A stretch of 64,000 bases of DNA from Escherichia coli. Its GTDB lineage: Bacteria; Pseudomonadota; Gammaproteobacteria; Enterobacterales; Enterobacteriaceae. Below are positions 39,001 through 45,000 of this stretch, in pieces; the stretch's first letter is position 1, and every line of letters begins with the position of its first letter. The position numbers are program-made. The DNA lies in NCBI RefSeq assembly GCF_017348835.2, contig NZ_CP072312.1; one strand, given 5' to 3'.

Positions 39001-42000
39001 TTATGAACATCGCGATATTTTGGTATCTGTCGGTGAGCGTAAATATCAATAACGTTCTGAATTGTTAATGCATACTGCTCGACGTTGCCTACCCGCTTTT
39101 TATTAAATTCATAGCCACTTTCTTCCATTTCTTTAACGGCCAGTTCTACGATGCGTCGGCTCAGCTTCGGCAATTTTGCGACCGCATTACGAGTATATGT
39201 TTGATGATACTCTGTCAGATTGAATTCTTTTCTTTGCTCCTCAATATCCCGACTCATGGCCTGAAGTAGAGCACTTGCTCTGAGCGCTATGGTACCGACA
39301 CTACCGTAATCTCGTTTCATAGTTTTCCTCTGAGATAGATTCCCTGCCCATATATTGCGTACAAAGTTCAATCACATTGTACACAAATATGAAAGAGGTA
39401 CAATATATTTTGCATTGCCATTAAATTATCGTACGTTGCAAGTCACCATTCACATCAAACCGCATAGTTAGACATTGTCTCTGAGCAGGCGAGGGGTTAG
39501 ACAAGACCGTTGGGCGCGTCAGAGTGTTATATTAGGATACGGGTAGGTGACACCCACCTCTGGCACAGAACGGACATTCATTGATGCCATGCCAGAATGG
39601 ACGTTCAGGTTATTCCGTCCAGTTCTGCTGGCAGCACGAGATCTCCCCTGGTATAGTGATGCCACGGCAAAGTGCTCAAACAGGGATAATATGATGGAAA
39701 TCAAGGCTCAACAGTTTGTCACATCAACGGGGCGGCAAGTCCTTACTGACAACGGACAACAAGGTATGGGCGGCGTGGCGGAAGCAATTTTTGCAAACTG
39801 CGCGGAACTGGATAACGACCAGCTTAACGAGATCATCGAGTGGGTTCGGCTCTATCAGCGCTGAATGCCATCATCAGGCTGCGCAAGCGGCCTTTTTTAC
39901 GCCCCTTGTTTAATTCCCGCACTACCTGGACATTCAGGTGATTCTGTCCATCTGTATAAAAAACAACCAAAAGACTTGTTAACAGGTCATATAAGGAGTA
40001 TCTTTGAGACTGGTTAAATAGTCTTGAAAGGTGGCCTATGCCTAACATTATTCTCAGTGATACAAGCGCCAGTGTCAGCGAGCTGAAGAAAAATCCGATG
40101 GCGACAGTCAGCGCCGGTGATGGTTTCCCGGTCGCTATCCTGAACCGTAATCAGCCTGCTTTTTACTGTGTACCCGCAGAGCTGTACGAAAAGATGCTCG
40201 ATGCCCTGGACGATCAGGAGCTGGTTAAACTGGTAGCCGAACGCAGCAACCAACCGCTGCATGATGTAGACCTAGATAAATACCTATGAGGTATCAGGTA
40301 AAATTCAGGGAAGATGCGCTGAAAGAGTGGCAAAAACTGGACAAGACTATTCAGCAACAGTTTGCGAAAAAGCTAAAAAAGTGCTGTGACAATCCGCATA
40401 TTCCTTCCGCAAAACTGCGCGGGATAAAGGACTGCTACAAAATAAAATTACGTGCGTCAGGTTTTCGCCTAGTCTATCAGGTGATTGACGAACAATTAAT
40501 TATCGCTGTTGTAGCTGTGGGTAAACGTGAGCGCAGTGACGTTTATAATCTTGCCAGTGAAAGAATGAGATAATTCACGGCGGATTATCGGTTCAGCCCT
40601 CTCATTAACCGCTGATGCTGAGTTGATGTGTAGGGCTTTGCGTAATGCACTGGAAACACGACCGCGTGATGGTCGCCTGCTGTTTCATTCAGATCAAGGT
40701 GTTCAGTATAAAAGCAATAAATACAGAAAGTTACTTTATGGGGTAATGCAAAGTATGAGTCGCAGAGGGAATTGCCTGGATAATTCGCCGATGGAAAGAA
40801 TCTTTCGCAGCCTTAAAAGTGAATGGCTTCCGAAAGGTGGTTATGGTGATTGCCATGCAGTACGCGAATAAATCAGTGGATAAATGCTTATTACAACGTT
40901 TATCGACCTCATACAAACAATGGTGGTTTATCGCCTTGCCGTATGAAGAAAAATGGAAACAGGTTATTCCGGTGTCCTGATTTTATGATCCACTACACAT
41001 TCCTGACGAACGCCACTGCATAAATCACATTGCACATCCTCAGAGAGTACGCAGTATAGGAGGGGTATATATACATTATCGGTATATCAGGCGACTTCTG
41101 TCTGTATGTTGTCGGTGCTCGCCGCAGACCGGTGACCGGGCGAAGCCCGCGAACCGGCGAGGAAGCGCAATGTATCTGTAGTTACAGTGAGCAGGTACGC
41201 CCTGAAGCCCTTTCATAAAACGGTTGTGTGCGCTGTCCTTCGGGAAGATTTATCCACATATCCAGAGGCCCGATCCAGTAAACAGATCCATGAATGATCA
41301 ATAAAGGATCCATTAAAGATCCCCATACCGCTGCAAACCTTGCCACTCATGCTCCAGAACCACGATCACATAAGCTGTGGCATGTTGATGATAAACTGTA
41401 ACATGCTGATGATAAGCTGTATTCAGTAATACATATACTGACGTAAGTTAATGACATAAACTATGGTCAGTACACCAGACTCAGTTGTTAAATACAGACT
41501 GCAGGTTTTTCTTCAGTCAGTTGACGGGGGTCTGACACACGATTTTCTGTTTATTCTTTTACTGTCCACAGGCAGGAGGCTTTCTGGAAAACGAAAATTC
41601 AGACATCAAAAAACTGTTCGGCGAGGTGGATAAGTCCTCCGGTGAGCTGGTGACACTGACACCAAACAATAACAACACCGTACAACCTGTGGCGCTGATG
41701 CGTCTGGGCGTCTTTGTACCGACCCTTAAATCACTGAAGAACAGTAAAAAAAATACACTGTCACGTACTGATGCCACGGAAGAACTGACACGTCTTTCCC
41801 TGGCCCGTGCAGAGGGATTCGATAAGGTTGAGATCACCGGCCCCCGGCTGGATATGGATAACGATTTCAAGACTTGGGTGGGGATCATTCATTCCTTTGC
41901 CCGCCATAACGTGACTGGTGACAAAGTTGAACTACCTTTTGTCGAGTTTGCAAAACTGTGTGGTATACCTTCAAACCAGTCATCACGCAGGCTGCGTGAG

Positions 42001-45000
42001 CGCATCAGCCCTTCCCTGAAACGCATTGCCGGTACCGTGATCTCCTTTTCCCGCACCGATGAGAAGCACACCCGGGAATACATCACTCATCTGGTACAGT
42101 CAGCCTACTACGATACTGAACGGGATATTGTTCAGTTACAGGCTGATCCCCGCCTTTTTGAACTGTACCAGTTTGACAGAAAAGTTCTTCTCCAGCTTAA
42201 GGCGATTAATGCCCTGAAGCGACGGGAGTCCGCCCAGGCACTCTACACATTTATAGAGAGCCTGCCCCGGGATCCGGCACCGATATCGCTGGCGCGGCTG
42301 CGTGCACGCCTCAATCTGAAGTCTCCGGTATTTTCCCAGAACCAGACGGTCAGACGGGCAATGGAGCAATTGCGTGAGATTGGATATCTTGATTACACTG
42401 AGATCCAGCGGGGACGGACAAAACTCTTCTGTATTCACTACCGGCGTCCCCGGTTAAAAGCGCCGAATGATGAGAGTAAGGAAAATCCGTTGCCACCTTC
42501 ACCTGCGGAAAAAGTCAGTCCGGAGATGGCGGAGAAGCTTGCCCTGCTTGAGAAACTGGGCATCACGCTGGATGACCTGGAAAAACTCTTCAAATCCCGC
42601 TGAACATAAACTGTAGTCAGTGAAGATCGCTCCTTTACTGACTACAGCTTATATTAACCGGGGCAGTGAGTGGTTTGCTCACTGCAGTTTATATTCTGTT
42701 TCCTGCAGTGCTGTCTGTAGCTGAGCTGCCATCTGCTGTCCCTTACGTAAGTGATCCCGTAACCTGATGCTGAGGCATTGCTCCCTTCATAAAACATGAC
42801 TTACTCACTACAGCTTATATACATGCTCCAGCTTATGTTATGTCTGTTCTGCTGACCACTGCTTATATAAGGAAGCGCGTATGCCGTCACCTCAGGGGAG
42901 GCAGTGTACGCAGGATCTCCGCAGCATCCCGCCCGTCACCTGTGAAAGGCACTGCCAGCGTGGCAGCCATATCCAGTGCAAACACTCTGGTATAAACCTC
43001 CATAGAACGTGGATCCCTGTGACCAGCCAGTGCCTGAATGACTTTCCGGGGCTGGCGGTGATAAAGCATGTGCATGATATAGCTGTGCCGGAAGGTGTGT
43101 GGTGTAACCGGAATCGAAAAGTGTACTCCGTCAGCTTCGGCCCGTCTGACAGCCTGCTTCAGCCAGTTGCGCATGGTTTCGTCGGTCACGGCCCATAATG
43201 GTTCACGACGACGGGGCCGGGTGGTGATCATCCAGCTTTCCATCTGCCTGACATAGCTTATATCTGTCAGCGGAACTAGGCGGACTTCATCTTTTGGCGG
43301 GCGTCCGCGTCGCGCACGCACTTTTTCGGACAGGATCCGCACAAACGGTCTTGCACCATCCAGATCAAATGATTCCGGCGTCAGCATCCGGGCTTCGCCA
43401 ATACGCATTCCGGTATTCCAGAGGGTGGCGAACAGCATATGGTGACGCTGATCCGGCATATAGAAGAGAAGGGCACTCACTTCCGGGGCCAGCAGGTAGG
43501 CCGGTGTGGCCCCCGTGGAAGTGGCCATTCTTCTCAGGGAGAGCGCTGTTGCAAAATCCACCCCCGGCGCAATGGGTAACAGGGAGACGCGTTCTGGTGA
43601 ATTCTGCAGGGGAATGACATTGTTCATGAGTTATTTTTCACGTAGCACACGCACTGTTTATGGATACAGGTATTCTGACCTGAACGCCCGGATCCTTCCA
43701 CGACAATAAATCGCAGCGCGCGGATCCTTTTGTTTGATTATCACGCATTGTTGTGGGTAAAACCAAATACGTAAAGGCGCATTTTGCCGCAGGTATCCCG
43801 TCTTAAGCCAGTCATGGTGCGGGTTGAGAGCTTGTTTACCGTTTTTGGGAGAATTGGGGTAATGCCAGGAGAGGCAGACATGGGTAAACAGAGTTCAGAC
43901 AGGAAAGAAGTGCAGGTACGTTACGTAAATCCTAACCAAGTTTTGATATGCGATTCGAACGCACTGCATTATCTGCTGTAGAAAATAGCTTCCGGATATT
44001 CAGTAGTTCTCTGGGAATATCCCGATGGAAAAATATGCAGCAGATAAATGAATATGGCAATAGAGTGCAATTTATTCATTACGGGATGCTAATCTACACA
44101 TAAAATATCAGAAAAGACTATTAATAAGAATAAACAAGCCCTTATATTATAATAGTAAAAATATGGAGGTGGTATTTTCTGGATGCAAGTTACTCGCGTT
44201 ATAAAATTTCTTTAATTTTGTAAAGTTTTAACCACTCAACATTATATCTACTTTTTAATTTTCTATAACAGATAACTTCAAAGCCCATATATTTCGCTAA
44301 AAACATTGTTATTGATAAACTGTCAGAGAAGGATTTCTACCCTTCTCTGACTACCTCTTTGATAAATATTCTCACCATTAACACATACCTTGCATATATT
44401 ATTACGCTGCGTGTTATATTATTAACTTCTGCAGAATGTCCTCAGTTGTATCATCATATATTATGATATCTAAATTATGACCATTAGTATCAATTACTAT
44501 AGTATCAACAAAATAATCTTTCCGAAGTTTTCCTATTGGTAAATCCAGAATTTTTCCATCACCGCCTGTTGCAAGCCAGAAAGCCTCCCTGAATGAAACA
44601 GATGCTCCGGAGTATCCCCAGACCTCAGAAGATAACTGAGAGTTGCCCCCATCGTTAAGGGCTTTACTTGCTGTTATTGCATGGAGACACGCCTCAAATA
44701 TCGATGGGCTATGTCCTGCTGGGATATCACTCCCAAGACCAACATTTATATTCAGAACCTGACGCAAGATAAATATATCTGTTTGCAAAAATAGAAATTA
44801 GAAAGAGGACTGTGAGAAATTCCGGCAGATGCTGAGTCTATAAGAGGCATATGATCATCACTGATATGATTGCGGTATGTAAGAATGGTTTTTCGTGTCA
44901 TCAGATCATAATTATATAATGCCTGACTATCGGTAACACCATATCTCTCAACGACAACGTCACAGTGTAATCATTCATGGAGACTTACATATGGGAAATA

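Follow-up and report, generated by a model that had tools for sequence, protein, structure and literature searches.

A RepFIB replicon of a pO103-like plasmid of Escherichia coli, with iteron arrays on both sides of repA and a convergent integrase gene

RepFIB (IncFIB) is a classic replicon of F-like plasmids, which was mapped to the nucleotide in about 1989–1993, was revisited in 2025 and is found in thousands of sequenced plasmids. The replicons of P307, F, and pO157 were described by Saul (1989), Spiers and Bergquist (1992, 1993), and Gibbs (1993), as cited in PMC11983097, the study in which Lloyd, Stephens, Di Maio, and Thomas (Nucleic Acids Research, 2025) analysed the FIB replicons of F and pO157. 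Supplementary Figure S2 of that study shows a rep gene that starts at CTG and has a marked ribosome-binding site (rbs), with iterons B to D* on its upstream side and E to K on its downstream side; K is labelled within the integrase coding sequence, and the published FIB map also draws a DnaA site (PMC11983097). The locus described here lies in a stretch of 64,000 nt from E. coli (contig NZ_CP072312.1, assembly GCF_017348835.2), hereafter the window. Positions 41113–43870 are identified by sequence as a RepFIB replicon with its linked integrase gene, int. The module is already known: it is a textbook replicon, described decades ago, and the same as in public plasmid sequences. With the RepFIB of P307, F, and pO157 it shares the CTG start, the DnaA box, the GATC cluster, iterons B–D'' and E–K, and the convergent int.

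Two other well-described plasmids provide points of comparison. P1 encodes a homologous initiator (46.1% identity to the RepA of the window, E=9e-71) and has the same order of parts, a similar spacing of about 21 bp between origin iterons, and a control array that also starts at the stop codon of the initiator gene. The P1 record runs from a DnaA site through five Dam sites, five incC iterons that carry the repA promoter, and repA to nine incA iterons. When the orientation of the incA iterons was checked, the three proximal to repA were found to be direct and the six distal ones inverted, compared with one direct and six inverted downstream units in RepFIB. Because P1 and the RepFIB relatives considered below share this layout, the bracketing of the initiator gene by oppositely oriented clusters is a design of the P1/RepFIB class and is not specific to this locus. 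P1 differs in that its iterons are 19 bp long and have another sequence (GATGTGTGCTGGAGGGAAA), and in having two tandem DnaA boxes; its control array is followed by parA with no recombinase gene, and no iteron lies within a neighbouring gene. Mini-F RepFIA (ori2 iterons, repE, and incC iterons) likewise has a Rep_3-type initiator between origin iterons and an inhibitory control array, and a tyrosine recombinase for multimer resolution (ResD, with rfsF) is linked to that replicon. According to Uga et al. (1999), as cited in PMC11983097, the downstream array of mini-F inhibits the origin via Rep-mediated pairing. In contrast to these similarities, no resemblance between RepA and RepE was detected in a sequence search of PDB, in which RepE structures are present, and the iteron sequences of the two replicons differ. 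Furthermore, the site of ResD is defined (rfsF), and none is known for the FIB-linked Int.

The assignment to RepFIB is carried by identity to public plasmids. A megablast search of PLSDB with 41000–43700 matched at least 5000 plasmid records. Six of these plasmids, including pO103 of E. coli O103:H2 (NC_013354.1), are 100% identical across the full 2701 nt, and plasmids of O55:H7 and O145:H28 strains are 99.8% identical over the same segment. Positions 41113–43870 align with F (NC_002483.1, 38131–35375) in one blastn alignment of 2760 nt with 95.9% identity, and the bounds of the RepFIB-int cassette, a block common to the F plasmid, were therefore set at the ends of this alignment. At the protein level, RepA is 98.8% identical to the RepFIB Rep of F over residues 1–339, and the two int products are 99.2% identical. 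The differences from the RepFIB of F are thus allelic only; among them, the rbs is AGGAGG in the window and AGAAGG in F, and iteron J is ATATAAGCAGTGG in the window and ATATAAGCTGTGG in F. These alignments, together with the coincidence of the published iteron map with the one obtained here, bear out the original prediction that the gene bracketed by iterons is a RepFIB repA. A 25-kb query around the replicon was 99.7% identical to pO103-type plasmids, and the window therefore belongs to a virulence plasmid of enterohaemorrhagic E. coli (EHEC); the EHEC virulence plasmid genes carried are stcE, etp, and ehx. The replicon type assigned to pO103 by MOB-suite is IncFIB alone, and an Rfam search found no FII-type CopA control RNA in the 64 kb. 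For these two reasons RepFIB probably maintains the plasmid, and the replicon studied here is probably the sole replicon of this pO103-like EHEC virulence plasmid.

Repeat detection with Tandem Repeats Finder (TRF) yielded a 21-bp period at 41370–41421 (2.5 copies, score 76), in agreement with the periodic units that had been predicted from the sequence. In addition, a repeat-family search returned a downstream family of five members, as well as numerous inverted pairs that join upstream and downstream units. The iterons were set as units of 21 nt, from which weight matrices were built. The upstream (origin) iterons, all on the plus strand, are B (41368–41388), C (41389–41409), D (41410–41430), the degenerate D' (41431–41451), and D'' (41454–41474), which score 25.4, 19.3, 23.7, 13.7, and 25.2 bits, respectively, and are spaced at 21, 21, 21, and 23 bp. 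Downstream, iteron E (42604–42624, plus strand) begins 1 nt past the repA stop codon in direct orientation and scores 28.8–29.4 bits when all units are used for the matrix and 22.4 bits under the upstream-only matrix described below. The other control/incompatibility iterons between the two genes, F (42634–42654), G (42674–42694), H (42800–42820), I (42818–42838), and J (42848–42868), lie on the minus strand, inverted relative to B–D'', with scores of 24–32 bits in the all-unit matrix. With K, which lies inside int, the downstream units number seven, of which six are inverted. The opposite orientation attributed to the two flanking clusters is thus correct for F to K and incorrect for E, which has the orientation of the upstream set. 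All 12 units (B–D'' and E–K) sit where the published F/pO157 map places them (PMC11983097, Supplementary Figure S2).

For a non-circular test, a matrix was built from B, C, D, and D'' only and was applied to both strands of all 64 kb. Outside the training set, the highest scores (22.6 down to 15.8 bits) belonged to F, E, I, J, K, and H, and the top background match reached 15.3 bits. At a threshold of 12 bits there were 16 matches, whereas Markov-1 simulations gave 3.0 on average. Conversely, when the matrix was trained on E–J, its top foreign matches were D'' and B. Moreover, a simple degenerate pattern gave nine matches against 3.8 expected, seven of which are inside the two clusters, and every match with two or fewer mismatches falls there. 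The repeats are real, and they form a single family upstream and downstream of repA.

The layout was compared with that of five relatives, namely F, an enterotoxigenic E. coli (ETEC) plasmid, E. coli p788309_1, Klebsiella pneumoniae pNDM_6TM, and Salmonella pSLT, the last three of which have a RepA of about 91% identity. The relatives have five or six direct upstream iterons; E follows in direct orientation right after the stop codon, F is inverted 30 bp further on, and further units, mostly inverted, fill the space up to the int stop codon. Tail-to-tail pairs occur among the downstream units of the diverged lineages; in p788309_1, one plus-strand unit of this kind ends at a distance of 4 nt from the stop codon of int.

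Upstream of the iterons, the DnaA box TTATCCACA (41250–41258, plus strand) is the sole match to TTWTNCACA in the window, where 6.25 would be expected by chance. Its distance from the rep start, -334, is shared with F and locus L013, and is -346 or -347 in p788309_1 (locus L004), locus L005, and pSLT; in P1, the DnaA box TTATCCACA is at -277. Between this box and iteron B is an AT-rich stretch (41272–41321) with five GATC (Dam) sites, which is presumed to be the DNA-unwinding region. The sites are at 41272, 41285, 41296, 41307, and 41318, spaced at 13, 11, 11, and 11 bp, compared with a density of 2.6 per kb for the whole window. TRF reports a period of 11 with 4.5 copies at 41272–41322, and the A+T content of 41280–41319 is 70%. 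The five GATC sites and their spacing of 11–13 bp are kept in all RepFIB lineages compared, and the DnaA box and the cluster are positionally conserved across lineages with RepA identities of 90–99%. Similarly, five Dam sites are annotated in P1 oriR between the DnaA box and incC, as in RepFIB.

The gene repA (41584–42603, plus strand) is read here as a 339-aa coding sequence that starts at a CTG located 14 codons (42 nt) 5' of a GTG at 41626, from which the open reading frame (ORF) to 42603 would encode 325 aa. The account in PMC11983097 states that the CTG start in P307, F, and pO157 was found by N-terminal sequencing in 1992 and that a change of CTG to CTC abolished function. By homology, the true start of repA is therefore the CTG at 41584 and not the GTG at 41626. 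The gene is preceded by the rbs AGGAGG (41574–41579, plus strand), which is the pO157-type functional allele. The FIB replicon of F is defective because its rbs is AGAAGG, whereas the AGGAGG of pO157 is functional (PMC11983097), and the allele in the window accordingly predicts a functional replicon. The RepA product matches the Pfam family Rep3_N, the initiator WH1 domain, over residues 99–210 (E=2.8e-11, 44.4 bits against a cut-off of 22.4), which points to an initiator of the Rep_3 (iteron-binding, winged-helix) family. The public label from the Prokaryotic Genome Annotation Pipeline (PGAP) is "RepB family plasmid replication initiator protein" with 325 aa and a GTG start, which is a systematic mis-annotation; the mis-annotation of FIB rep genes at GTG has been remarked on (PMC11983097). 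The practical worth of the present analysis is accordingly in annotation, that is, in the CTG start over the GTG of the pipeline, the rbs allele, and the incompatibility iterons.

Taken together, these features make it very probable that the locus is a functional RepFIB replicon of the iteron-type theta class, with initiation mediated by the iterons and copy control by handcuffing. RepA would be translated weakly from the CTG and would bind the five tandem 21-bp iterons B–D''. Together with host DnaA at the adjacent box, RepA would then open the AT-rich, GATC-dense stretch, where replication would start. The seven downstream iterons (E direct, F–K inverted, K in int) would constitute the copy-control and incompatibility locus, on which bound RepA would pair with RepA on the origin iterons. 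Such handcuffing would loop a repA segment of about 1.2 kb in cis or join plasmid copies in trans, so that the origin would be shut off as copy number rises; RepA would also autoregulate its own synthesis. In this scheme the int product is separate from the control circuit and would not act on the iterons. We infer the opening step at the DnaA box and AT-rich stretch and the looping geometry, as well as three points discussed below, namely the terminator role, the occupation of K by RepA, and the function proposed for Int. The FIB replicon of pO157, which is almost identical, drives a single-replicon plasmid. On a P15A vector, the EFGHIJ block alone efficiently displaced a pO157 FIB plasmid, and the BCDD'D'' block alone did not; the same study proposed a handcuffing model in which Rep pairing between downstream and origin iterons occurs in cis or in trans, similarly to mini-F and P1 (PMC11983097). 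The downstream iterons E–J, and possibly K, are thus the part expected to exert incompatibility, and they may be useful in plasmid-curing designs.

Several observations weigh against this interpretation. For FIB, handcuffing is a model that was argued from curing data and from the analogous F RepFIA and P1 replicons. In the upstream-only scan, iterons G (13.9 bits) and D' (14.3 bits) fall inside the background. A sigma-70 scan of 41150–43950 gave no plus-strand candidate between the iterons and the CTG, and inspection by eye upstream of repA found hexamer pairs of 3/6+3/6 at most, so that no repA promoter was annotated. Furthermore, RepA has no sequence match in PDB at E<=1, solved Rep structures included, and matched no NCBIfam model; its membership of the family at the level of the fold, with a dual winged helix like that of RepE, pi, and the RepA of pPS10, is consequently putative and follows from the Pfam match. 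Alternatively, the locus could be silent, a relic comparable to the partly defective FIB of F, in a plasmid that is maintained by another replicon. Precedents for this are the F FIB, which is defective from its weak rbs, and the intact but inactive RepFIB replicons that have been reported in dual-replicon plasmids. However, the rbs in the window is the functional pO157-type AGGAGG and the CTG start is intact; typing of the near-identical pO103 gave IncFIB only, and no CopA-type RNA of an FII replicon was found by Rfam in the 64 kb. A relic is therefore very unlikely, and the active, iteron-controlled replicon is retained as the preferred interpretation.

Two further alternatives concern the downstream repeats. 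The gene int (42887–43627, minus strand) encodes a 246-aa tyrosine recombinase and is convergent with repA. Its stop codon (42887–42889) is 15 nt past 42871, the end coordinate given in the original prediction, and 18 nt past the end of J (42868). The predicted abutment of the integrase gene on the downstream cluster was thus accurate with regard to J, but a further iteron, K (43243–43263), lies inside int, so that the array does not end with J. This proximity, the location of K, and the superficial likeness of inverted pairs such as E/F to recombinase core sites could suggest that the inverted repeats are attachment (att) or resolution (res) sites of the integrase, and that the array is a locus for site-specific recombination and not for replication control. 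The comparison with IncFIB(K) makes this barely credible. In K. pneumoniae pE013, Int is 93% identical and RepA is 57% identical, but the consensus of the repeats on either side of rep is unrelated (ATTGACTGYGATATGCA), no unit was found by the iteron matrix of the window, and the position of K is not conserved. Conversely, the int of pSLT has decayed to frameshifted fragments, and the iterons of this plasmid are intact. Since IncFIB(K) keeps Int and has different iterons, the iterons follow RepA and not Int, and the link between integrase and iterons implied by the original prediction is not supported. In addition, the downstream units and the origin iterons in front of repA have a common consensus, and the downstream block acts in trans as an inhibitor of FIB replication (PMC11983097). 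The longest perfect inverted repeat 3' of the repA stop codon, which had been predicted to be 10 bp long, is present but measures 11 bp (CTGTAGTCAGT at 42611–42621 and ACTGACTACAG at 42637–42647), and it consists of the cores of iterons E and F placed head to head. Each iteron starts with ATAA and hence ends with TTAT on the opposite strand, so that a head-to-head pair forms a stem with T-rich tails. Two tandem terminator-like hairpins result on the plus strand (42611–42685), one formed by the E/F palindrome (42611–42647) and the other by G with an inverted half-unit (42663–42685). In a scan for terminator-like structures, the first was recorded as a hairpin of 15 pairs with a T-rich tail behind it, and the second stem also scored as terminator-like; the RNA fold of 42595–42700 has -46.2 kcal/mol (z = -6.9), and none of 200 shuffled sequences was as stable. 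These properties would also suit a perfect inverted repeat that is primarily a Rho-independent terminator and resembles iterons by coincidence only. However, both arms are full 21-nt iterons, the two best units in the window (28.8 and 31.9 bits). Moreover, the E and F cores differ by 1–2 nt in p788309_1 and pSLT, in which the perfect palindrome is not conserved and each unit still fits the iteron consensus. The main constraint therefore seems to be RepA binding and not stem pairing, and a terminator by primary function is a tenable but less favoured explanation. The terminator and iteron roles of E/F are not exclusive, and the hairpin may terminate transcripts between the convergent repA and int genes.

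Iteron K (ATATAAGCTATGTCAGGCAGA, 43243–43263, minus strand) covers codons 122–129 of int (D-I-S-Y-V-R-Q), among which are the rare codons ATA and AGG. It was outside every training set and scored 16–16.7 bits, a level that no background match reached in either the combined or the upstream-trained scan. Its conservation was examined in seven loci with an E. coli-type RepA, which represent about four lineages and have int nucleotide identities down to 82%. K is identical at 21 of 21 positions in all seven, including the int pseudogene of pSLT, where divergence on both sides of K is about 20%. It lies within an invariant run of 25 nt, and just three runs of at least 25 nt occur in the 741-nt int; only 23 of the 721 windows of 21 nt in the gene are without a variable site, and the median window has five. 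Conversely, 8 of the 21 positions are changed in IncFIB(K), corresponding to two replacements and three synonymous codon switches, and in that comparison K is among the 5% most diverged windows. This contrast between invariance with an E. coli-type RepA and divergence in IncFIB(K), whose RepA differs in specificity, suggests that selection for RepA binding preserves K and that the segment is dual-coding, in a sample of loci that is small and not phylogenetically independent. No FIB(K)-type iteron was found at the equivalent of K inside the Klebsiella int, and EFGHIJ suffices for incompatibility without K (PMC11983097). In p9134dT (locus L007, NC_023290.1, about 3470), the homology to the cassette ends near window position 43246, inside K. 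In an IncFIA/FII plasmid (locus L015, NZ_CP027537.1, about 2500), the 5' part of int survives from window position 43251 on, beside IS26. These are two independent rearrangement end-points, one of which is an IS26 insertion, and their coincidence with K was taken as probably due to chance.

The assignment of Int to the tyrosine recombinases is based on the Pfam family Phage_integrase (E=8e-15, 55.4 bits). Int aligns to XerD in the catalytic domain only (residues 131–281), and likewise to XerA and IntI4. Its residues R75, H177, R180, H203, and Y212 match XerD R148, H244, R247, H270, and Y279, and the equivalent of the catalytic lysine is ambiguous. The alignments to XerD, XerA, and XerC begin at Int residues 40–60 and at subject residues 100–131. 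An N-terminal core-binding (SAM-like) domain of about 100 aa was not found in Int, for which the maximal ORF is 246 aa; with only about 40–60 residues preceding the catalytic domain, Int is therefore without a canonical core-binding domain. Scores were below all NCBIfam cut-offs (58 bits against 220 for XerA, 55 against 330 for XerD, and 51 against 265 for integron integrase), and the label "XerD" that Int bears in some records is accordingly unjustified. A tblastn search of PLSDB found Int at 90–100% amino acid identity in nearly all of the 5000 best-scoring records, and int is typically about 1.2–1.7 kb from the record start where a PLSDB record begins at repB. Literature searches found no published functional or experimental work on the FIB-linked Int. 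The extreme conservation of this apparently uncharacterised protein, together with the iteron embedded in its gene, is the remaining point of interest of the locus.

Upstream of int is a near-invariant non-coding block of about 245 bp (43628–43870), which is a candidate promoter and/or recombination site. In an alignment of five lineages including IncFIB(K), most of its columns are invariant up to GGGGTAATGCCAGG, beyond which conservation decays. The block contains the direct repeats CGCCCGGATCCTT and CGCGCGGATCCTT, 32 bp apart, with two copies of CGCSCGGATCCTT. It has no conserved ORF, and Rfam gave no match at E<=1 in 41000–44100, so that no known RNA accounts for the block or for the hairpins after repA. 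The short ORFs that precede int, one of 46 aa in the window and one of 54 aa that is annotated as a "transcriptional regulator" in CP091392.1, were rejected as genes, as their frame and start are not conserved across lineages. Past the block, a GA-rich hypervariable stretch (about 43871–43930) is followed by low-GC DNA (27–35%).

P1 has the Cre/lox system. By analogy with Cre/lox and with ResD/rfsF beside RepFIA, Int most plausibly serves in plasmid multimer resolution or rearrangement. A more elaborate hypothesis is that K is a selected RepA site in int whose occupancy couples replication control to int, and that Int acts on the block of about 245 bp as a dedicated system for the resolution of FIB multimers. 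Such coupling could take the form of a roadblock, in which RepA on K would block int transcription, or of a collision, in which int transcription running into J–E would disturb handcuffing. This combined hypothesis is considered improbable.

The surroundings of the cassette include other maintenance genes and mobile elements. At the left edge of the cassette is a remnant of an IS3-family transposase (40623–41023), with fragments of an rve domain in several frames; the O145:H28 plasmids have an intact IS3-family element at this position. About 0.5 kb to the left of the replicon, a gene pair encodes a Phd/YefM antitoxin and a ParE/RelE toxin (40038–40573, plus strand). Genes of the ParA/ParB type for partition are located further left according to the pO103 annotation, so the order of the maintenance cluster is par, toxin-antitoxin, rep, and int. 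The low-GC DNA to the right of the cassette is cargo and contains an ORF of 149 aa (45407–45856, plus strand) that is annotated as hypothetical in pO103. The similarity of this ORF to the catalytic (ADP-ribosyltransferase) domain of Exotoxin A stays below threshold (E=1.3e-4; 22 bits, with the cut-off at 25.9). In other parts of the window, the Rfam gathering score is reached by four ALIL pseudoknots, three on the plus strand (6083–6199, 14509–14625, and 25182–25298) and one on the minus strand (15936–16052). As these pseudoknots are frameshift signals of the IS3 family, at least four insertion sequence (IS) copies are present. The other Rfam matches are the FinP/traJ 5' untranslated region and the antisense RNAs AS-pc02, AS-traI, and AS-traG, at 26286–26397, 48678–48862, 53796–53872, and 62348–62433, respectively. 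Together, the Rfam matches are consistent with an F-like transfer region that is broken up by IS elements.

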